Assembly (NCBI GenBank): GCA_046095245.1
Contig: JBJTJB010000386.1
Location: 1-25,491 of the forward strand
Direction of reading: 5' to 3'
Source: Bacteroidota bacterium
GTDB taxonomy: Bacteria > Bacteroidota > Bacteroidia > AKYH767-A > OLB10
Length of the DNA stretch: 25,491 nt
The number at the start of each line of letters is the position of its first letter. The stretch's first letter is position 1. Shown here piece by piece: positions 3,574 through 12,571 of the stretch. A model generated the notes under the pieces. It did no database searches. It was not told the DNA's origin and worked only from the letters and a program-made list of their open reading frames with translations. The position numbers and the translations under genes were made by a program.

Positions 3574-4650
3574 ATGCCCTTAAAAACATTTGAAGAGATC
3601 AGTCGCGATGTCCGAAATCGGATCTACTCGCCCGTGTACATTTTTCAGGGTGAAGAGCCTTATTACATTGACCGGCTCGCTGACCTGATGGAGGATAGCA
3701 TCATTGATGACTCACTCCGGGAATTCAACCAGACAGTAGCGTATGGTAAAGACTGCGATGTAGTACAACTTGTCAGTATGGCCAAGCGGTATCCGATGAT
3801 GTCGGATTATCAGCTGGTGTTGGTCAGGGAAGCCCAGGAAATCCGCAACCTGCTTCCCAGGGGAAAGGGCGCTACGAGCGAGGAAACACCCATCAAGGGC
3901 GATGAGGAAAAAGATAAGACGGATCACTTTCTGGCCTATGTTCAGAACCCGCAGCCATCAACAGTGCTTGTCCTGTGCCTCAAGTACAAGTCGATTGACA
4001 AGCGCAGCAAGCTCTACAAGGCCCTTGAAAAAAAGGGCGTCGTGCTGGAGACCAAGAAACTGTATGACGACAAGCTCCCAAAGTGGATTGAAACTTACCT
4101 TGCCGACAAGAAGGCATTGATCCGTCCGAATGCGGCTTTGCTGATGGCCGAGCACCTGGGCAATGACCTTTCTCGCATTGCCAATGAATGCGATAAACTC
4201 CTTATCAACCTAAAACCCGGAGAAACCATCGATGTGAAACACATCGAACAAAACATCGGTATCAGTAAAGAATTCAACGGACTCGAGTTACTGAAGGCAA
4301 TCGGCAAAAAAGACATTTTTCAGGCGACACGGATTGTCAATTATTTCCGTGAAAACCCCAAGAGCAATCCGATCCAGATGACTCTTGGCATGCTTTACAA
4401 CTACTTTTCAAAATTGCTTTTATTCCACTCCCTGACTGATAAATCCAAACAGGCCGTAGCGACAGCATTGAAAGTACACCCCTTTTTCGTGGATGAATAC
4501 TTCGTGGCTGCCAAAAATTATCCTCCGACGAAACTTGTCGAGATTGCAGGTTTACTACGCCAGTTCGATATGCGATCGAAGGGTGTTGGAAGTACCGAAA
4601 GTGATAGTGGTGAATTGACGCGCGAACTTGTGTACAGAATCATGCATTGA
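3574..4650 (+). CDS. holA: DNA polymerase III subunit delta
   Basis: PVYIFQGEEPYYID, EFNQTVAYGKD, AKRYPMMSDYQLVLVREAQ, HLGNDLSRIANECDKL, EQNIGISKEFN and DMRSKGV. Confidence 0.93.
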   Translation: MPLKTFEEISRDVRNRIYSPVYIFQGEEPYYIDRLADLMEDSIIDDSLREFNQTVAYGKDCDVVQLVSMAKRYPMMSDYQLVLVREAQEIRNLLPRGKGATSEETPIKGDEEKDKTDHFLAYVQNPQPSTVLVLCLKYKSIDKRSKLYKALEKKGVVLETKKLYDDKLPKWIETYLADKKALIRPNAALLMAEHLGNDLSRIANECDKLLINLKPGETIDVKHIEQNIGISKEFNGLELLKAIGKKDIFQATRIVNYFRENPKSNPIQMTLGMLYNYFSKLLLFHSLTDKSKQAVATALKVHPFFVDEYFVAAKNYPPTKLVEIAGLLRQFDMRSKGVGSTESDSGELTRELVYRIMH

Positions 4651-5441
4651 GGCAGATGAGCAAATTGTTCCGGATTTCTGTCGTCTCCTACCTGAATTCA
4701 AAACCGTATCTGACGGCATTGAACAGCCTATCTACCGAGCATTTCCGGATAGAACAGGACATCCCGGCCATCTGCGCCCAAAAACTATTAGCCGGAGTTG
4801 TCGACCTCGGTTTGATTCCTGCTGCGGTCATTCCGAAAATCGTACAACCTCATTTCGTTCCGGGTTTCGGTATTGCAGCAAACGGAAAGGTTGACAGCGT
4901 TCTGTTGCTGAGCCAGGTTCCCATCAGCGATGTGCGTAATGTGGTTCTCGACATGGAATCGCGCACATCTGTTCAGCTGGCACGAATTCTCGCCAAGGAA
5001 TACTGGAACATTCAACCCACCTGGCTGAATGAATCGGAAACCGGGAAACCAATTGAGTCTGGAGAACATACCAGCGTTGTGGTGATTGGCGACAGGGCTA
5101 TGGAATTGGCACCGAAGTATGAATTCGGTTATGATTTGGCTGAGGCCTGGAAGAACCATACGGGTTTGCCGTTTGTTTTTGCAGCCTGGGTAAGCTCAGG
5201 GTCTATACCGGAAGAAATCCTGAAAGCGCTGACTGCTGCTTTTGAAATTGCGGCTAATCCCTCAGAGTCCTTATTGGATGCAATCCAATTGGATCATCCC
5301 CATCTAAATGTGCGTGAATATCTGACCCGGCGGATTGTATACCGTCTTGGGGAAGCGGAGTACCAGGGTCTCCATTGCTTCCTGCAAAAACTCGCTGAGT
5401 CGGATTCAATACCGGCTTCCGGTTCCACCCAAGCCCGATAA
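4647..5441 (+). CDS. mqnA: Menaquinone (futalosine pathway) biosynthesis protein, MqnA/chorismate dehydratase-like
   Basis: ISVVSYLNSKPY, GKVDSVLL, DMESRTSVQLARIL, VVIGDRAM and YDLAEAWKNHTGLPFVFAAW. It overlaps the holA stop by 4 nt at 4647-4650 (a downstream ATG is an alternative start). Confidence 0.82.
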   Translation: MRQMSKLFRISVVSYLNSKPYLTALNSLSTEHFRIEQDIPAICAQKLLAGVVDLGLIPAAVIPKIVQPHFVPGFGIAANGKVDSVLLLSQVPISDVRNVVLDMESRTSVQLARILAKEYWNIQPTWLNESETGKPIESGEHTSVVVIGDRAMELAPKYEFGYDLAEAWKNHTGLPFVFAAWVSSGSIPEEILKALTAAFEIAANPSESLLDAIQLDHPHLNVREYLTRRIVYRLGEAEYQGLHCFLQKLAESDSIPASGSTQAR

Positions 5442-5675
5442 ACGGTCGGTTGCATCCGAAAGTCGTCTGACCAATTCGTACTCCTCGTCCGTGAGACCGG
5501 GAGCAGGATTTAAAGGGGTGATTCCCGCCTTGCGGACAGGATTGGCTGAACGCCCCATGACAAGTGCTGCCAAATCGCGGATGAACGCCGATCGCTCATG
5601 GTCCTCCATGGCTTCACTCAGTGTGACAACGAGACGAAGGGCTTTGAGGCGGAGATCCGAAAATTCATTTTCCAT
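5406..5675 (-). CDS. Small hypothetical protein of about 89 aa (MENEFSDLRLKALRLVVTLS...)
   Basis: ATG at 5675 lies 16 nt after the kinase stop on the same strand. The sequence looks like amphipathic helices. The longer 5816 start in the ORF track overlaps the kinase and is unlikely. Confidence 0.55.
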   Translation of the reverse strand: MENEFSDLRLKALRLVVTLSEAMEDHERSAFIRDLAALVMGRSANPVRKAGITPLNPAPGLTDEEYELVRRLSDATDRLSGLGGTGSRY

Positions 5676-5691
5676 GACCCTTCTACGCCAA

Positions 5692-7521
5692 TCAGGCACG
5701 ATTGGTTCCGGAACTCTGATGGACATTTGAGGAATTTGACACCGGTACGGTTTCATCCCTTGATTCAGGCCAGAAAACGACGAATGAAGCTCCCATTCCC
5801 AATTCGGATTCAACACGTATGGATCCGCCCTCTTCCTCCACTAATTTTTTGACGATGGCAAGACCCACCCCTCTTGATTCCACCTCATCCCTCGCATTGA
5901 GCGTTTGAAAAATCTCAAAAATTTTCTGGTGGTACCTGGGCTCAATGCCTGGACCATTATCCTGCACATAAAATTCCCATCCACCGGTGGTCAAACGACA
6001 TCCGATAGCGATTTCAGGCGCAGACTTGTTGTTGTATTTTAGCGCATTCTGTATGAGGTTGATAAAGACCTGCTGCATCTTTACCTTACGCGCAAAGATC
6101 CGAGACCAATCACCGGTGATAGTTATCCGGACACCTTGTGGCGGCCCGAGAAGATCAACGGTTTCCTGCACCATTTCGGCCACATCGAATATTACACGAT
6201 CCTCCTCCTTTTTAGCGGCTTTCGTATAGTCGAGAATACCATTGATAAGACCTTCCATACGAACCACCCGACCCTGTATAGTCGTCAAGTGCTTCCGCAT
6301 ATCTTCAGGCAGGTGCTGTCCCATATCTTCCTCAATCCAACCGGTAAGGCTTCCGATGGCACGAAGTGGTGCTTTTAAATCGTGAGAAACCACGTAAGCG
6401 AACTTGTCGAGTTCGGCATTGGTCTTTTCGAGGTTTCGCATGTAAAGCAGGGTCTGCTCTTCGGCCATTTTACGCTCAGTGATATCGGTACCGATGAGAA
6501 TGAACTGCGAACTTCCGTCCTCATCCGATTGAATGGGAGTCGCATTGAGCTGGATCCAATACCTGGTTCCATCTTTCCGAGCAATTTGAAGTTCGCCGGT
6601 GAAAGATGCATGCCGACCAAGTGCACCAGACAATTCCTTCAGTGCATTATCTGACAAACCAGGAACAGGTGTATAGACCGTCAATATGTCCAACCCAAGG
6701 ATGTGAGAAGAGCGAAGATGGGTCAGCCGCATGAACCCATCATTGACCCATTCAATCCGCCCATTTGCGTCGGTAATCACAATCGCATTTTCGGCTTTTG
6801 ATGCTACCGTTGACAACTTATTCAACTCACGGTTTTTCAGCGTAAGCTCGTTTCGTTGTTCCGTAATCCGTGAAATGACTTCGTTTTTACCGCTTTCCAG
6901 AAAATTCATCTGAGCGGATAGAATCAACATGGCAAAAAGCCAGGTCGACATGTAATCGAGGTTGATACTCCACTCATCTTTCCCGATGAGATCATACTGC
7001 ACCCAATCCGTATGCCCTGTGATATACCAGAAATAGACAATGTGGATGGCAGAGAGGGCGAATACGATGCGACCGGCCTTATTCCCCAACAACATGTAAG
7101 CCAGCAGCATATTCCCCGCGAGATACATGATTGCAGAGGCCCTGATTCCGCCCGAGCTATAGCTAATAAGATGCAAGGTGATAAAAGCCGCAAGTACGAT
7201 TGTGTAATAGGAAAACCTATGGTTACGGTGAAACGGCAGCGAAACGTAATTGACCACTAATCCGATCGCCAAAAGTCCGATCAACAACGAAGTCAATTTA
7301 GCGGTGACACCAGACTCCATTACATAAACGGACTGAGCGAATGCGATACCAATGACGATTCCCGCTGTGAGTGTGGTTATCGTGAATAACCTGAACCGCT
7401 GGCGATCGATCAGTTCCTGAGCCGCAAGGCTATCCAAATATTCCCGATAGCGAAGACGCCACCCGCCGAAAAACCCGAGCCTTTTGGGTAACTCTACCGA
7501 AACCGAGCGAAATGGATACAT
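5692..7521 (-). CDS. Membrane sensor histidine kinase: about 6 TM helices, coiled coil, PAS/PAC, HisKA and HATPase
   Basis: H-box VSHDLKAPLRAI, N-box NLIQNALKY, G1 DNGPGI, F-box IFEIF and G2 GVGLAIVKK. PAS region runs from AIVITDANGRIEWVN to DITERK. There are six hydrophobic segments at the N-terminus. The start is set at ATG 7521 because the 7623 start overlaps the divergent regulator and lies upstream of the promoter motif. Confidence 0.92.
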   Translation of the reverse strand: MYPFRSVSVELPKRLGFFGGWRLRYREYLDSLAAQELIDRQRFRLFTITTLTAGIVIGIAFAQSVYVMESGVTAKLTSLLIGLLAIGLVVNYVSLPFHRNHRFSYYTIVLAAFITLHLISYSSGGIRASAIMYLAGNMLLAYMLLGNKAGRIVFALSAIHIVYFWYITGHTDWVQYDLIGKDEWSINLDYMSTWLFAMLILSAQMNFLESGKNEVISRITEQRNELTLKNRELNKLSTVASKAENAIVITDANGRIEWVNDGFMRLTHLRSSHILGLDILTVYTPVPGLSDNALKELSGALGRHASFTGELQIARKDGTRYWIQLNATPIQSDEDGSSQFILIGTDITERKMAEEQTLLYMRNLEKTNAELDKFAYVVSHDLKAPLRAIGSLTGWIEEDMGQHLPEDMRKHLTTIQGRVVRMEGLINGILDYTKAAKKEEDRVIFDVAEMVQETVDLLGPPQGVRITITGDWSRIFARKVKMQQVFINLIQNALKYNNKSAPEIAIGCRLTTGGWEFYVQDNGPGIEPRYHQKIFEIFQTLNARDEVESRGVGLAIVKKLVEEEGGSIRVESELGMGASFVVFWPESRDETVPVSNSSNVHQSSGTNRA

Positions 7522-7524
7522 TTG
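7517..7524 (+). promoter_or_regulatory. Candidate sigma-A -7 box (TACATTTG) for the response regulator, overlapping the kinase start codon
   Basis: Perfect TAnnTTTG on the plus strand, 69 nt before ATG 7594. No TTG was found at the -33 spacing. Confidence 0.4.
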
Positions 7525-7555
7525 ATGGAGTTTCTCAGGGAAGATTATTCCTGCA

Positions 7556-7585
7556 TTGTACGGAAGTGCTCTCCCTCCGGTTGCA
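7556..7585 (-). promoter_or_regulatory. ECF-sigma-type promoter, copy 1 (TGCAACCG-N12-TTCCGTACAA), upstream of the histidine kinase
   Basis: The minus strand reads TGCAACCG GAGGGAGAGCAC TTCCGTACAA. It has AAC-N17-CGT geometry, and the boxes and spacing are identical to the copy at 11392-11421. Confidence 0.72.
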
Positions 7586-7593
7586 TTAGACCC

Positions 7594-8007
7594 ATGACAA
7601 ATCAGCTCCCCCGTATCCTTCATGTGGAGGATGACCAGATCGACCGAATGGTTGTTCAGCGGCTACTGGGCAGATTCGGGTTGGCAGAGGGTTTACTCCA
7701 GGCCGGGAATGGCCTTGAAGCACTTGAACTTTTAAGCACAGCTCCCAAACCTTTCCCGAGGGCCATCCTGCTTGACATCAATATGCCCAAAATGAACGGA
7801 ATTGAATTCCTTCAACAGATCAGACAGGATCCTCTTCCACTTGCTACGCGCATTTACATGCTTACCACCTCTACCGACGAAAGGGACCGAAAATCGACCT
7901 TCGAACTTGGTGTTGCAGGTTATTTTGTGAAACCCATCGATATGAGTGGCTACGAGATGCTTTTCGAAACGCTGAAGTCCTTTTGGTCATTGAATCAATG
8001 GCCCTAG
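7594..8007 (+). CDS. Single-domain response regulator (CheY-like, Rcp1-type receiver)
   Basis: LHVEDDQID, phospho-acceptor ILLDINMPKMNG, LTTS and VKP, with no output domain. The start is set at ATG 7594. Confidence 0.92.
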   Translation: MTNQLPRILHVEDDQIDRMVVQRLLGRFGLAEGLLQAGNGLEALELLSTAPKPFPRAILLDINMPKMNGIEFLQQIRQDPLPLATRIYMLTTSTDERDRKSTFELGVAGYFVKPIDMSGYEMLFETLKSFWSLNQWP

Positions 8008-8048
8008 GCAAGTTCCAGATGACAAGCTGAAATTTATAGCTCCCGTTC

Positions 8049-9326
8049 TCAACGGTCTTTTCTAAAAAACCGATTCACCTCCGCCATCGAACTACCCGCA
8101 TCGGCAAGGGCCATGGGCAGTTGAAGTGCGACTTCTTTCAGGAGACCTTCAATGTCCTCCCTCGTCATGTGCAAGGTGATCGGTACACGTATGCCGGTAT
8201 TGTTGTACGAAACACTCGGAAAAACAGATAGGTTCACGTAATAACCGGCATTCATGAGTCGGCGAACCAGATTGTATCCCACCACTGGCTTTCCCAGACA
8301 AATGAACTTGACCGGAGAGATATCATCCGACATCATTGGCAGATCGAGTAAGCGGGACGTCTGATTGAAAAACTTAATCCGATCCTGTAGTTGCTTCTGC
8401 ATGAATCCGATTTCCTGGGTCAGGTGGATTCGCATGGACGCCACTGCGGCTCCCAGTACAGGAGGAGGCATCTGGATGCTGAAAATAGAAGTCTTGCCAT
8501 AATCGTGTACCCGCCTGGCTTCATCCGGATCTGGAAACACCATTACACCACCTGCTGCACCAAAAGCCTTTCCGAGTGATGTACTTAAGTACATACGCGG
8601 ATGTGATTTTGTCTTACTCATTACAAAACCCGACCCATTGGGTCCGGCCCAACTCATGCCGTGGGCATCGTCGATGTATAAATTCAACTGCTCATACCGA
8701 TCGAGCAATTCCGTGATTTCCGATACAGGTGCCAAATCGCCGAACATTGAATACACCCCATCGGCCATGTACCAGATTTTCCTGCAAGATGTAGAAAGGA
8801 CCTTGACGCGATCTTCCAGCAAATCAAGTCGGTTGTGCCTAATCACCTCAACAGGAACTCCGCGTTCCTTTAACAAGGTGACCGCCATTTGCACGCTGGC
8901 GTGCACACTCACGTCCATTATGACGGCATCCTCCTCCCCGACAATAATCGGCAAACTGCTCAGATGTCCAAGCGTAGTTGTATTAAAAACAGCTACTGGC
9001 GTTCCGAACACTTCTTCGAGGCCATGTTCCAGTTCACCATAAAGCGGTGATGACAGGTATGAACGCGACGAGGAAAACTGAACACCAAACCGGGAAATCG
9101 CATCAACAGCGCCCCCCATCAGACGCTGATCGAGGTCAAGGCCTAAATAAGAGCAGGATCCGAAATTCTTCAGCTTGCGGCTGTTCAGGGTGACATGCCG
9201 GCCGTCGAGCTGCGCATCCTCTACCGTTTGAAGAATGATTCCGAGATTTTTCCCGGATACAGAAACTTCATCCAGCAGGGATAAAATCTGTTCATGCTTG
9301 GTTTTGAGTCTGTTTTCGGGATTCAT
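8049..9326 (-). CDS. PLP-dependent alpha-oxoamine synthase family enzyme (BioF/Kbl/SPT/CqsA fold), divergent subfamily
   Basis: NFGSCSYLGL, HASVQ, DGVYSMFGD, DDAHG, Schiff-base lysine in SLGKAFGAAGG, and terminal VFPSV...GIRV. The start is set at ATG 9326 (MNPENR). Confidence 0.88.
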   Translation of the reverse strand: MNPENRLKTKHEQILSLLDEVSVSGKNLGIILQTVEDAQLDGRHVTLNSRKLKNFGSCSYLGLDLDQRLMGGAVDAISRFGVQFSSSRSYLSSPLYGELEHGLEEVFGTPVAVFNTTTLGHLSSLPIIVGEEDAVIMDVSVHASVQMAVTLLKERGVPVEVIRHNRLDLLEDRVKVLSTSCRKIWYMADGVYSMFGDLAPVSEITELLDRYEQLNLYIDDAHGMSWAGPNGSGFVMSKTKSHPRMYLSTSLGKAFGAAGGVMVFPDPDEARRVHDYGKTSIFSIQMPPPVLGAAVASMRIHLTQEIGFMQKQLQDRIKFFNQTSRLLDLPMMSDDISPVKFICLGKPVVGYNLVRRLMNAGYYVNLSVFPSVSYNNTGIRVPITLHMTREDIEGLLKEVALQLPMALADAGSSMAEVNRFFRKDR

Positions 9327-9461
9327 CAGGTATATCAGGCCAAATGCTGATCTGCACCTAAAGTACCGTGGACCCGCAGCACATTCCAGACCGAATCCAT
9401 TCAATTATCAACCCGGGGGTGTTGATGGAATAGCGTGGTGAATCAAGTGAAAAAGCCGAGT

Positions 9462-11372
9462 TCAATCCTGTAGCAATGCAAAACCATTGGGCCTCACATC
9501 ACCCATCGTGACCCGGCAAGGCTCGGCAAGTCGGATATCCTGCGACAGCAATAGCGCTTGGGAGGGATAGGCCTTTTTGACGACCATACGACGGATAGCC
9601 TGATTTGCTGGCCATGTATCGAACTTGCCTGTGACCTGGGGATCACTTTCCGTATAAAAGAGATAAGTGGCTCCCGCATGGTACATCCGACCCGCAGTGC
9701 GTACATTCCCCGCATCCGATTTCGAATGTAACCCCTCCTGATGTCCGATACCGATGGTAGCGCCATCGTTCAGACTAAAGGTACCATCGCCGCTCACGAC
9801 AGCCTGTTCACAAAGCAACTCTGCACCTGTTTGCACTTCGAACATTCTGTTACGCGAAATTGGACCCAGAACGGCACCCTTGATTGACAAAGAACGATCC
9901 GTGGGGATTCGCATGTTTCCAAGTTGTACCGAGCAATCTTCACGTTGTATCCATCGGGCGGATGTTGAGCCATCAGCTCCAACCTTGAGTAAACTGTTAG
10001 CAGATTGCCTGCAATCGAAGCGGCCACCGAGCAAAATCACGTCCCCTTTCACCGATAGTGTTGTTGCGGCCGTTGTGTTCCGGGAATCACTAAAAGCCCC
10101 CTTGCGCATGACGAAGCGGCCATCTACATTCAAACGAAGGACACCATGTTGTGGACCGGCAAACTCGCCGCCATCAAGAACCAGATCGCCACCTACATTT
10201 AACGCTGCATCAGACGATGGAATGAAACCGCCCTTTCCAGTACCTGACAGAACCAGATCACCCTTGATTTCGGGAAGCGATAATCCAACGGGTAGACAGA
10301 CATCGGGATCGACCTCAAACCGAAAAGAACCCATGGTGGGCACGTGACCGAAGGATGCATTACCCATGCGCAAAATCACTTGTACTGAACCCCTGGCGAT
10401 TTCGGTTGTGAAGGCCGGAAGCGGACCTGTTGAATTGTGGTAATACAATGAGCCGCTTTCAAGACGCAAATCCGAGATAAACCAATCGCCGGCTACTGCC
10501 GTATCGACCTTGAGAACTCCACCACAGGCTACCTGAACGGCACCAAGGCGAAGAGGTGCAGTGATTTTCAACTCACCGCCTTTTTCAACAACGAGCGTTT
10601 GCAGGTTACCGCCCGTACTGGAGATCATCCGATGACCGGACTGGATGAAAAAACTATTCCGAGTTTCATTCATTTGCCTTGGGGGCAAACCGGATCCATC
10701 GCGTCGGGAATTCCAGGATGCGGCTTTATTGAGCGACAGACTGCCCATTGAATAAAAAGGGATGTTGGGCAAAATGAAACGCTTCCCCGCCGGATTTCCG
10801 TGTTCAGGCCTTACAATACGAGAACCGATTCGGACCTCGCGGCATGCGGCATCTACGGCAGCGCCGGGTGCACTTGCATCAGCAGGTATATCGTACGTAA
10901 GCCAAAAATGATTTTTTCCGCGCATCAATTCTTTTGTGCCCGTAAAGACGAGCTCCTCCCCGCTGATTCGAACGAGTGTTGACCCGACCGTTTCCTGCAA
11001 TGAAAACTCCGGGTCATTCCCGGTAAACCAAAGCCTGGCATTCATGAAATGACGCTCATACGGTAATGTTGTGCCCCGCGAAACGAAGGTGACGCTGTTG
11101 AGTGCAATAGGAACACCTTTTCCGTTGGTTTCAACGACCAGTCCGATTACACATTGGTTGATACTGCCACGCAATACAGGCAGCGTATCCTGATTAACCG
11201 ATACGCCAACCAAGGTCATTCCCGAGGCAGCTTTCCCCTCTTCTTCGACAGCGAGATTGAAAAAGACCAATAAGCCCAAACCAAGGGCCAGGGTAATTCC
11301 TGCGAAAACAAGCGTTACCTGACGTAAACGTGTAGATGGACTTTGCCTGAATCTGATTCGTTTTCCTGACAT
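9462..11372 (-). CDS. N-terminally anchored or secreted protein with a BNR_assoc_N-like (sialidase N-terminal) Ig-like domain and a beta-helix-like region
   Basis: TM or long signal segment VTLVFAGITLALGLGLLVFFNL. PVLRGSINQ...ARLWFTG...GKNHFWLTYDI matches my recollection of the BNR_assoc_N domain. The rest is Gly/Leu-rich beta-strand repeats (LNVGGDLVLDGG, LSVKGDVILLGG). No T9SS C-terminal domain is recognisable. Confidence 0.72.
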   Translation of the reverse strand: MSGKRIRFRQSPSTRLRQVTLVFAGITLALGLGLLVFFNLAVEEEGKAASGMTLVGVSVNQDTLPVLRGSINQCVIGLVVETNGKGVPIALNSVTFVSRGTTLPYERHFMNARLWFTGNDPEFSLQETVGSTLVRISGEELVFTGTKELMRGKNHFWLTYDIPADASAPGAAVDAACREVRIGSRIVRPEHGNPAGKRFILPNIPFYSMGSLSLNKAASWNSRRDGSGLPPRQMNETRNSFFIQSGHRMISSTGGNLQTLVVEKGGELKITAPLRLGAVQVACGGVLKVDTAVAGDWFISDLRLESGSLYYHNSTGPLPAFTTEIARGSVQVILRMGNASFGHVPTMGSFRFEVDPDVCLPVGLSLPEIKGDLVLSGTGKGGFIPSSDAALNVGGDLVLDGGEFAGPQHGVLRLNVDGRFVMRKGAFSDSRNTTAATTLSVKGDVILLGGRFDCRQSANSLLKVGADGSTSARWIQREDCSVQLGNMRIPTDRSLSIKGAVLGPISRNRMFEVQTGAELLCEQAVVSGDGTFSLNDGATIGIGHQEGLHSKSDAGNVRTAGRMYHAGATYLFYTESDPQVTGKFDTWPANQAIRRMVVKKAYPSQALLLSQDIRLAEPCRVTMGDVRPNGFALLQD

Positions 11373-11391
11373 ACGATTTACCGAATGCCAT

Positions 11392-11421
11392 TTGTACGGA
11401 ACACAGCGCTAAACGGTTGCA
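11392..11421 (-). promoter_or_regulatory. ECF-sigma-type promoter, copy 2 (TGCAACCG-N12-TTCCGTACAA), upstream of the BNR_assoc_N gene
   Basis: The minus strand reads TGCAACCG TTTAGCGCTGTG TTCCGTACAA. 18 of 30 positions are the same boxes, at the same spacing, as 7556-7585. Confidence 0.72.
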
Positions 11422-11423
11422 AT

Positions 11424-11453
11424 CAAAAAAAACAGGCCCGAATCCGGGCCTGT
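11424..11453 (-). terminator. Intrinsic terminator of hppD
   Basis: A 9-bp stem (ACAGGCCCG/CGGGCCTGT, 11432-11453) with a 4-nt loop, followed on the minus strand by a T-run (A-run at 11425-11432 on plus). It lies 23 nt past the hppD stop. Confidence 0.88.
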
Positions 11454-11476
11454 CTGTTAATCAAGTGGTGCTTCCG

Positions 11477-12571
11477 TTACAGATTGCCTCTTAAAGCCTG
11501 CTCACGTTCGATGGCCTCAAACAGCGCCTTGAAGTTGCCTTTACCGAAGGAACGGGCGCCCTTTCGCTGAATGATTTCAAAAAAGACCGTGGGGCGATCC
11601 TCCACCGGCTTGGTGAACAACTGGAGCAGGTAGCCTTCCTCATCACGATCGACCAGGATACCCAAGCGGGCGAGATCATCCATGTCCTCGTCGATCTTTC
11701 CTACCCGAGCCGTAAGGTCATCGTAATAGGTTTTCGGAACCGCCAGAAAATCGATGCCGCGCTCCTTTAACTTCGATACGGTTTCGATGATGTTATTTGT
11801 AATGATGGCGATGTGCTGTACACCAGCGCCATGGTAAAACTCCAGGTATTCGTCGATCTGGGATTTCTTTTTCCCTTCGGCAGGTTCATTGATGGGAAAT
11901 TTCACATATCCGTTACCGTTTGATACCACCTTTGACATCAGCGCGCTGTATTCGGTGCTTATGTCCTTGTCGTCGAAGGTGATGATCATCTTGAAGCCCA
12001 TCACATCCTCGTAAAATTTGACCCATTCGTTCATCCGGCCAAGCTCCACATTCCCCACACAATGATCCACGTGTTCCAGACCGACCGGTTCGACTTGAAT
12101 CGATGAAGACGCAGCACGGTAGCCGGGCATGAATGGACCGCTATAGTTCTTACGCTCTATGAACTTATGGATCGTATCACCGTACGTGTGAATGGCAGCT
12201 ATACGCACCTCACCGAAGTCATCACTGAGTGTAGTGGGCTGGGTATGCGCTTTAGCCCCTCGGGACATGGTTTCATAAAACGCCTTCTCTGCGTCATCGA
12301 CCCAAAGTGCCAGAACCTTGACTCCATCACCATGCTGTGCCACATGCTTTGTGATTTCGTGATCGGGATGCAAAGCCGTTGTGAGTACAAAACGCACCTT
12401 GCCTTGTTGCAGTACATACGATGCGCGATCGCGGATTCCTGTTTCGGGGCCGGCGTAGGCTACTAGCTTGAATCCGAAGGCATGTTGGTAGTAATAAGCG
12501 GATTGCTTGGCGTTTCCGACATAGAATTCAATGTGGTCGGTGCCGTTCAAGGGGAGGAAATCGGTGCTCAT
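11477..12571 (-). CDS. hppD: 4-hydroxyphenylpyruvate dioxygenase
   Basis: DHIEFYVGNAKQSA, HGDGVK, DHCVGNV, KFPINEPAEGKKKSQIDEYL, GVQHIA, YLLQLFTKP and FFEIIQRKGARSFGKGNFKALFEAIEREQ. Confidence 0.97.
   Translation of the reverse strand: MSTDFLPLNGTDHIEFYVGNAKQSAYYYQHAFGFKLVAYAGPETGIRDRASYVLQQGKVRFVLTTALHPDHEITKHVAQHGDGVKVLALWVDDAEKAFYETMSRGAKAHTQPTTLSDDFGEVRIAAIHTYGDTIHKFIERKNYSGPFMPGYRAASSSIQVEPVGLEHVDHCVGNVELGRMNEWVKFYEDVMGFKMIITFDDKDISTEYSALMSKVVSNGNGYVKFPINEPAEGKKKSQIDEYLEFYHGAGVQHIAIITNNIIETVSKLKERGIDFLAVPKTYYDDLTARVGKIDEDMDDLARLGILVDRDEEGYLLQLFTKPVEDRPTVFFEIIQRKGARSFGKGNFKALFEAIEREQALRGNL

Follow-up and report, generated by a model that had tools for sequence, protein, structure and literature searches.

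Four adjacent genes in a 25,491-nucleotide stretch of DNA from a Bacteroidota bacterium (contig JBJTJB010000386.1, positions 1 to 25,491; this whole stretch is called the window below) form the core of a conserved block. They encode an alpha-oxoamine synthase (AOS), a stand-alone receiver, a sensor histidine kinase with six transmembrane helices (6-TM) and a small protein, here named c3. The four genes recur together in most related loci, spread over many uncultured Bacteroidia, while their other neighbors change, and their arrangement is therefore more than chance. We tentatively favor the interpretation, which falls a little short of probable, that the kinase senses the product of the synthase and that the block is an analogue of the Cqs and Lqs signaling systems of Vibrio and Legionella, not a member of them. 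The AOS-plus-6-TM-kinase design is known from those systems; what is new is that it is built here from uncharacterized families. A sequence-only reading had described the block as a candidate autoinducer or lipid-signal module comprising a CqsA-fold synthase, a receiver, a 6-TM kinase, an envelope protein and a small open reading frame (ORF). Every one of these elements was found when the ORFs of the window were listed and then scanned with Pfam and NCBIfam.

The core features are given here; A1 and A2 are alignments of the kinase 6-TM domain and of c3, and a third alignment, A3, contains the membrane domains of cqsA-adjacent kinases. The receiver gene is divergent with respect to the kinase gene and convergent with respect to the synthase gene. 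The genome containing the window is a metagenome-assembled genome of 2.5 Mb that is 88% complete.

8049-9326, minus strand: AOS, 425 aa (Pfam/NCBIfam, tree)
7594-8007, plus strand: stand-alone receiver, 137 aa (Pfam Response_reg)
5692-7521 (open to 7623), minus strand: sensor histidine kinase (Pfam PAS, HisKA, HATPase)
6844-7461, minus strand: 6-TM sensor domain of the kinase, about 205 aa (alignment A1, AlphaFold)
5406-5675 (open to 5816), minus strand: small ORF, c3 (family hidden Markov model [HMM], alignment A2)

A homologue scan with the synthase, in which each species was represented by one genome, yielded at least 568 related stretches; the best 80 loci were examined and all their ORFs were clustered. 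Gene content was counted in the 67 loci with at least 2.6 kb of downstream sequence, or in the 58 with at least 4.2 kb. The AOS, receiver, kinase and c3 genes stay adjacent in three unrelated flanking settings. Setting A has hppD and the BNR_assoc_N protein gene upstream and mqnA downstream; setting B has a phosphodiesterase and a 1600-aa PKD/CHU_C surface protein upstream, and a cytochrome b561/molybdopterin oxidoreductase or an M16 peptidase downstream; setting C has a divergent thiolase, a 4HBT thioesterase and a hexapeptide transferase. None of the other ten genes of the window accompanies the synthase into settings B and C. The kinase lies at most 2.5 kb downstream of the synthase in 44 of 67 loci, a receiver-only protein is found at the equivalent position in 39 of 67, and c3 is present in 35 of 58.

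We then profiled 146 species genomes, all from the order of the window; one of them (G492, flagged as unpublished) is a single count in this set, and no claim depends on it alone. The sensor domain was detected in 129 genomes and the synthase in 131. Both were present in 126 and neither in 12, leaving eight discordant genomes (five with the AOS only, three with the kinase only), six of which have an incomplete assembly or carry the retained gene at a contig end. As read off coordinate lists, the two genes lie within about 3 kb of each other in roughly 100 or more of the 126 genomes. Complete genomes that lack both belong to genera g191 and g193, in the window's own family, and also to family f61. 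In genus g197, the synthase is on one contig and the receiver-kinase-c3 trio on another, all four genes being retained. In one genome that is 92% complete (G486, locus L126), we observed kinase and c3 genes with no detectable synthase and a receiver reduced to a truncated fragment in a rearranged position, which may reflect decay of the module after loss of the synthase.

The synthase-kinase pairing extends beyond the order. In the distant family f7, stand-alone AOS genes are 44-50% identical to the window synthase, and a kinase adjoins the AOS in 6 of about 13 such loci, representing five genera. Most often this kinase gene follows the AOS gene immediately, on the same strand and without an intervening receiver. 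The 6-TM domain of the f7 kinase is homologous to that of the window kinase (hhalign probability 94.4%, E value 8.5e-8), the match covering TM3 to TM6 and the exit helix, including the SGG motif. The pairing has thus survived both deep divergence and a change in gene order, and it is in our view the strongest argument that synthase and kinase may work together. Co-occurrence of this synthase subfamily with this membrane domain, which had been proposed as a check, was therefore positive both in the order and in f7. The gene order could also have been inherited without any functional connection, as the confinement of the four-gene arrangement to one order-level lineage and one AOS subclade might suggest. 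This explanation is very unlikely: both flanks have been replaced at least twice with the four genes still together, enzyme and kinase have been lost jointly in complete genomes, both were kept after their separation in g197, and the f7 pairing is independent, with a homologous sensor domain in another gene order.

The synthase is an aminotransferase class I/II protein of the AOS superfamily (KBL-like, PF00155; Pfam match 6e-15), and its pyridoxal phosphate (PLP) lysine and catalytic His/Asp/His are conserved (H133, D205, H207 and K236 in Escherichia coli BioF; residue table). In the FxSNDYLGL motif, the near-universal Asn (N47) is replaced by Cys throughout its clade. The top NCBIfam model was the unnamed subfamily PRK07505 (270 bits, for a cut-off of 342); no protein in 14 control genomes matched that model above its cut-off, so there is no model-organism member to guide function. 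Among the named models, the best-scoring equivalog was bioF (TIGR00858), with 159 bits versus a cut-off of 426. Models for serine palmitoyltransferase (SPT; NF047599/600/603) gave 109-133 bits versus cut-offs of 500-670, those for Kbl (TIGR01822 and NF005394) 114-125 bits versus 460-493, and that for 5-aminolevulinate synthase (ALAS) 93 bits. The CqsA/LqsA model (NF005526) scored lowest of all named models, at 51 bits versus a cut-off of 428. The nearest solved structure by sequence is Alb29 (138 bits, E value 2e-39).

We built a maximum-likelihood tree of 48 AOS sequences. Its references were annotated BioF, Kbl and ALAS genes from plasmid records, an SPT-like sequence from a genome and, from Chlorobiaceae-like genomes that GTDB places in the same phylum, five CqsA-type genes. 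The SPT-like and CqsA-type genes take the place of solved SPT, SulA, Alb29 and CqsA sequences. The window's synthase family forms one clade (support 92/90), whose sisters are fusions of about 810 aa between an AOS and a FemAB-like/GNAT domain in other Bacteroidota, together with the stand-alone AOS of family f7. AOS genes of proteobacterial plasmids come next outside. A fully supported branch (100/100), 2.1 in length, separates this whole set from every named family. The CqsA-type sequences, five in number, make up a clade of their own (100/100), apart from all other AOS including the window's family, and the window synthase did not group with the SPT-like sequence either. The description of the enzyme as CqsA-fold thus holds at the level of the superfamily and fails at that of the family, the CqsA type being the most distant AOS group.

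A further explanation would make the enzyme no more than a divergent BioF, Kbl or SPT. In its favor, bioF scores best among the named equivalogs, and no canonical bioF was found in the genome. We nevertheless consider this extremely improbable, given equivalog scores far under all cut-offs and the long, fully supported branch. The searches found neither bioB nor a bioA scoring above its cut-off in the genome, nor any bioB in five near-complete relatives that carry the synthase, and a genuine Kbl (707 bits, contig C209) is encoded elsewhere in the genome. Grouping with bioF, kbl or spt, which the sequence-only reading had named as the outcome contrary to its proposal, was accordingly not seen. 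With catalytic residues intact, scores below the cut-offs and no bioB, the protein would be an AOS without an assigned function; it is predicted to be an active enzyme of an uncharacterized deep clade, distinct from BioF, Kbl, SPT, ALAS and CqsA. The genome also has a third, unassigned AOS paralogue (C557:685-1962, L083), which reaches none of the NCBIfam cut-offs. In the tree, its partner with 100/100 support is a gene on a Spirosoma plasmid whose annotation reads 'pyridoxal phosphate-dependent aminotransferase family protein'; the paralogue may be a lipid enzyme of the cysteate acyltransferase type.

The kinase has PAS_9 (3e-16), HisKA (2.5e-9, with the H-box SHDLKAPLR) and HATPase_c (3e-23) domains according to Pfam. 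Its start is probably the ATG at 7521, a choice favored by the promoter predicted at 7558-7584 and by the N termini of homologues. The first 205 or so residues of the synthase-linked kinases form a single domain (E values of 1e-30 to 1e-105 against a group-A profile), with or without PAS, and alignment A1 revealed the motifs IPxDDLxxRQRxxLFR, YxSGGIRNSG and ESGKNxVIERITEQR. In the group-B kinases (460 aa), about half of those linked to the synthase, there is no PAS and TM6 is joined straight to HisKA. The membrane domain is thus the constant input.

The AlphaFold model of the sensor domain (pLDDT 86, pTM 0.82) has six helices, at residues 17-47, 52-78, 81-102, 109-125, 127-150 and 163-205, connected by loops of 2-12 residues, as had been anticipated from the sequence. 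No Pfam or NCBIfam model matched the domain significantly, MASE11 coming to an E value of about 0.2. By fold, the best matches were the 6-TM anchor of the Mycobacterium tuberculosis adenylyl cyclase Rv1625c (PDB 7YZK; TM-score 0.58-0.62, probability 1.0, identity 17-18%) and DivJ (0.60). In the ESM Atlas, the nearest clusters, judged on language-model features and predicted structure, were those of MASE-type membrane sensors (MASE11, MASE7 and others). The sensor domain would constitute a new, unassigned MASE-like family. Its predicted fold suggests a resemblance to a ligand-binding membrane domain, the hexahelical anchor of the class III cyclase Rv1625c/Cya having been proposed to be a receptor (PMC4821796, PMC9433096). 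The resemblance is suggestive since the Rv1625c anchor is isosteric with the CAI-1 receptor domain of CqsS and can be functionally exchanged for it (PMC4821796). Rv1625c differs in having a cyclase output in place of the HisKA of the block's kinase. MASE-type domains are modular multi-helix membrane inputs on kinases, cyclases and chemoreceptors, as the block's domain appears to be, but no Pfam model for them is significant on the latter.

Some genomes have two tandem 6-TM kinases, or three per genome, and a single synthase (L074, 8953-12472; L076, 6115-9608; genomes G489-G496 of genus g192). This recalls Legionella, in which several sensor kinases serve one signal. Kinases of two further groups, D and E, also lie beside the synthase; they were dropped as support because their membrane parts are unrelated to A1.

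The receiver matches Response_reg (1.4e-19), carries the residues of the phospho-acceptor signature (DD, D, T and K) and has no output domain. The small ORF is a diverged c3: it was matched in that frame by the family HMM, built from 37 loci. It lies directly 3' of the kinase gene and probably starts at the ATG at 5675, 17 nt past the kinase stop, yielding a soluble, helical protein of 89 aa. Members of the family have 90-120 aa and share the motifs LxPxxR..Y.N and LSxxE..LI..LS....L (A2). The AlphaFold2 model is a loose three-helix protein (pLDDT 74, pTM 0.38). No Pfam or NCBIfam model matched c3 above cut-off, and the ESM Atlas also gave nothing. We considered a histidine phosphotransfer protein and ruled it out, as c3 has no conserved His; the sole Pfam hint, to the TorS sensor (E value 0.007), is below cut-off.

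These features were compared with known systems. Like the block, Legionella lqsA-lqsR-hdeD-lqsS and Vibrio cqsA-cqsS place a BioF-fold PLP acyltransferase beside a six-helix kinase with minimal loops, and their genes cluster likewise (PMC3376566). The analogy drawn with the Lqs locus is apt in its layout of a synthase, a receiver protein without DNA-binding output and a 6-TM kinase, with conserved clustering (PMC3376566). By descent, the components differ. The enzyme comes from another deep AOS clade, as noted above. The block's kinase shares with CqsS and LqsS a short-loop six-helix architecture joined to HisKA, but hhalign comparison of A1 with A3, the membrane domains of hybrid kinases adjacent to cqsA, revealed no homology (probability 0.2%), so that the likeness to these sensors stands for architecture and falls for ancestry. 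The kinase is not a hybrid, and PAS is added in many members. The receiver is bare, at 137 aa, and lacks the LqsR-specific N- and C-terminal parts, the receiver of LqsR spanning residues 80-160 of a longer protein (PMC3376566). The block also has an extra conserved helical protein, c3. As enzyme clade, sensor domain and receiver all lie outside the Cqs/Lqs families, the resemblance would be convergent. Alb29 of Streptomyces albogriseolus (PDB 8XHA, 8XHD, 8I7U, 8XHK), the closest solved relative of the synthase, is an AOS of secondary metabolism, outside the biotin, threonine and sphingolipid pathways (PMC11906848). It is a distant relative, compared here by sequence score.

True CqsA-type synthases do occur in an even sample of 400 Bacteroidota genomes that we used as a phylum-wide profile, in a single family, f25, of Chlorobiaceae-like genomes of 2-3 Mb (590-640 bits). 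In three of these loci (L130-L132; genomes G126, G206 and G098), the CqsA-type gene is divergent beside a gene for a hybrid kinase of about 850 aa, in which the H-box follows straight on from a CqsS-like 6-TM domain. Chlorobium is already known to have cqsA homologues, and this arrangement is consistent with the known cqs homologues of green sulfur bacteria. Full-text literature searches for such a system in Bacteroidetes returned nothing relevant, and we know of no well-characterized dedicated autoinducer-receptor pair in Bacteroidota.

The regulatory elements and boundaries of the block are the following.

4647-5441, plus strand: mqnA, convergent boundary gene
7558-7584, minus strand: predicted promoter of extracytoplasmic function (ECF) sigma type before kinase-c3 (bipartite motif)
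9404-9426, minus strand: palindrome upstream of the synthase, found by eye, putative regulator site
9462-11372, minus strand: BNR_assoc_N envelope protein, 636 aa (marginal Pfam match)
11394-11420, minus strand: second copy of the predicted ECF-type promoter, before the BNR_assoc_N gene (bipartite motif)
11430-11455, minus strand: intrinsic terminator of hppD, with an 11-bp stem (7 GC pairs) and then a T-run; it bounds the block upstream
11477-12571, minus strand: hppD (ORF listing)

Terminator prediction and the ORFs agree with the limits proposed for the block, namely, the hppD terminator and the convergent mqnA. The 3' ends of mqnA and c3 overlap by 36 nt (5406-5441), with no terminator predicted between them. 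The remaining genes of the window are housekeeping genes (holA, PNP, yidC, CTP synthase, secDF, an rmlD-like gene and a glycosyltransferase gene). The Pfam and NCBIfam scans found no bio, tdh or sphingolipid gene in the 25-kb window, and the reported absence of such genes nearby was thus borne out.

The motif GCAACC-N13-TTCCGTAC occurs exactly twice in the window, at 7558-7584 and 11394-11420 (0.08 occurrences expected), and both copies are conserved in the nearest relative. With a looser ECF-type pattern, G[ACT]AAC-N15-18-[CA]GTA, we found matches upstream of the kinase in 22 of 49 loci (0.7 expected) and upstream of the BNR_assoc_N gene in 13 of 21 (0.4 expected). There were none upstream of the synthase in 78 loci (1.3 expected), of hppD in 21 loci (0.4 expected) or of yidC in 18 loci (0.3 expected). 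The sites have the features of ECF-type promoters, with AAC at -35, CGT(A) at -10, a spacer of 16-17 nt and conservation before orthologous genes; promoters of the AAC...CGTA class typically drive envelope-stress regulons. The kinase-c3 operon is thus driven by a predicted ECF-sigma-type promoter, and the synthase is predicted to be transcribed separately from its own, different promoter region; several relatives have a terminator between the synthase and the upstream gene. Elsewhere in the genome, GCAACC-N12-14-TCCGTA occurs at one site only (contig C160:4705-4729; L084 1501-1525, minus strand). It falls at the 5' end of an ORF of 371 aa, which has a weak match to the von Willebrand factor A domain and adjoins a PNP_UDP_1 gene. 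The site might mark a third gene of this ECF regulon, or be due to chance.

Upstream of the synthase, inspection by eye revealed a palindrome, ATCAACA-N6-GGTTGATAAT in the window and ATTAACA-N7-9-GTTAATAA in relatives. It is present in at least eight group-A loci (L004, L006, L008, L011, L014, L017, L019 and L021), about 50 nt ahead of a -7-like box, TACTTTG/A. Its half-sites are altered symmetrically between window and relatives. A site for a dimeric regulator or a hairpin is possible.

The BNR_assoc_N protein has an N-terminal anchor and a marginal Pfam match (26.3 bits for a cut-off of 25), with no NCBIfam match and no PDB sequence match. It is found only in the 24 closest loci, and a PKD/CHU_C protein or thiolase genes are present elsewhere in its place. 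The proposal that it is a module member was therefore abandoned as far as the core is concerned. From the common promoter type and the restricted occurrence, the protein appears to be co-regulated with the kinase in the window's lineage and to lie outside the conserved core.

We propose the following scheme for the block. The cytoplasmic PLP enzyme, judging from its family membership and intact catalytic residues, would condense an amino acid with an acyl-thioester to form an alpha-amino-ketone. This product or a derivative would be hydrophobic enough to enter the membrane, where the six-helix domain of the kinase may read it. The kinase would set the phosphorylation state of the divergently encoded receiver, which, as it has no DNA-binding domain, would have to work through other proteins; the obvious candidate would be c3, from the same operon as the kinase. 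Expression would involve the ECF-sigma-type promoter for the kinase-c3 operon and, for the synthase, the separate promoter with its upstream palindrome.

Several observations weigh against this scheme. All its functional steps are inferred from gene neighborhood. The promoter type of the kinase is not common to the synthase (0 of 78 loci), and the ECF-type promoter and co-regulated envelope protein fit envelope homeostasis at least as well as cell-cell signaling. CqsS was absent from the top 30 Foldseek matches of the sensor domain among Swiss-Prot models. The same 6-TM domain (E value 1e-32) is found on a LytS/His_kinase-type core (L099:176-1435) in a genome without the synthase (G087), which indicates that the domain is modular; this kinase was the one strong sensor-domain match in the 400-genome sample. 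All loci with receiver and c3 belong to one AOS subclade (88/75 support), so the four-gene arrangement may have arisen once. Members of the synthase family without a window-type kinase have as neighbors either a MerR gene together with a LytTR/LytS-type pair or a PAS-GAF kinase, or else lie alone, and sister clades of the synthase are fused to a FemAB-like GNAT domain.

The two-component system might instead sense another cue, such as envelope or membrane stress or, via PAS, redox or a small molecule, the synthase being an effector that is adjusted by the receiver and c3. We consider this rather unlikely. It would account for the ECF-type promoter of the kinase-c3 operon and of the anchored envelope protein, for PAS as a possible second input in many kinases and for the other two-component systems that adjoin the enzyme in other lineages, and a stand-alone receiver working by protein-protein contact could target an enzyme. 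The direction from kinase to enzyme is weakened, however, by the linked group-B kinases, which have the 6-TM domain only, and a specific match between one enzyme clade and one membrane domain, seen in two distant lineages, is what ligand-receptor pairs more typically show.

In another explanation, the enzyme would supply the long-chain base for a bulk envelope lipid, by analogy with sphingolipids or sulfonolipids, and the kinase would monitor how much of that lipid the membrane contains, in a homeostatic loop and not as communication. SPT and the cysteate acyltransferase of Bacteroidota are indeed AOS enzymes that make membrane lipids and are also encoded by single genes. Purifying selection on the enzyme is very strong: it is 98% identical to its nearest relative, versus 79-86% for the products of neighboring genes. 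The sister clade carries a fused N-acyltransferase-like domain, which lipid assembly would lead one to expect; the ECF promoter and envelope protein are compatible as well. Such a loop is quite unlikely all the same. The enzyme is no relative of SPT or SulA/CapB (133 versus 500 bits with the SPT models, and 53-55 bits to the solved cysteate acyltransferases), and it is dispensable, as whole genera of the same family lack it. There is no linked reductase or acyltransferase, and plasmid relatives lie in a small-molecule context, beside an MFS exporter, asnB or response regulators.

Returning to the interpretation that the kinase senses the product of the synthase, the molecule may act between cells or as a cue of the cell envelope. 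Both fit the evidence. It is unlikely, in our estimation, that the block represents a new Bacteroidota family of cell-cell signaling systems, in which a new AOS clade would produce a chemically new, amino-ketone-derived autoinducer for new six-helix receptors, independently of the Cqs, Lqs and Jqs systems of Proteobacteria. The data nevertheless tie an orphan enzyme clade to an orphan sensor domain by linkage, co-loss and a second, distant pairing, yielding a testable ligand-receptor hypothesis. If it is true, it would bring new signal chemistry and assign a ligand to a MASE-like 6-TM domain similar to the membrane anchors of adenylyl cyclases, which are themselves still ligand-less; the 'AOS plus 6-TM kinase' design would then have evolved convergently. 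The Bacteroidia in question are abundant in freshwater, groundwater and wastewater. Genetics would be feasible in f7, a cultured-type family with a simpler enzyme-kinase pair.

More distant relatives of the synthase are found in other contexts. In the 400-genome sample, eleven genomes besides the window's own contain relatives, nearly all of the fused type. These proteins of about 810 aa, with an AOS-clade part and a C-terminal FemAB-like/Acetyltransf_6 (GNAT) domain, occur in many other Bacteroidota (L087-L094, L096, L097, L140, L143, L144, L146, L149 and L150; e.g., L090:1507-3975). To our knowledge, no such fusion has been characterized. The domain pairing suggests that the amino-ketone is N-acylated or aminoacylated in the organisms that carry it. 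The AOS part of the fusions, which we compared together with the BioF2-type proteins of Mycobacterium, is sister to the window's family at 39-44% identity; the fusions differ by their extra acyl/aminoacyl-transferase-like domain and have no link to a window-type kinase. No homologue of their GNAT/FemAB-like domain was found in the window's genome. The AOS relatives on proteobacterial plasmids are all unnamed in annotation. That of pAtC58 (Agrobacterium fabrum; L123, 5839-7080) lies beside two genes for response-regulator transcription factors, a short-chain dehydrogenase/reductase gene and an acetolactate-synthase-like gene. Among the others (L124 and L102), one, on an E. coli IncF plasmid, has a major facilitator superfamily (MFS) transporter gene beside it, and another, in Enterobacter, has asnB.

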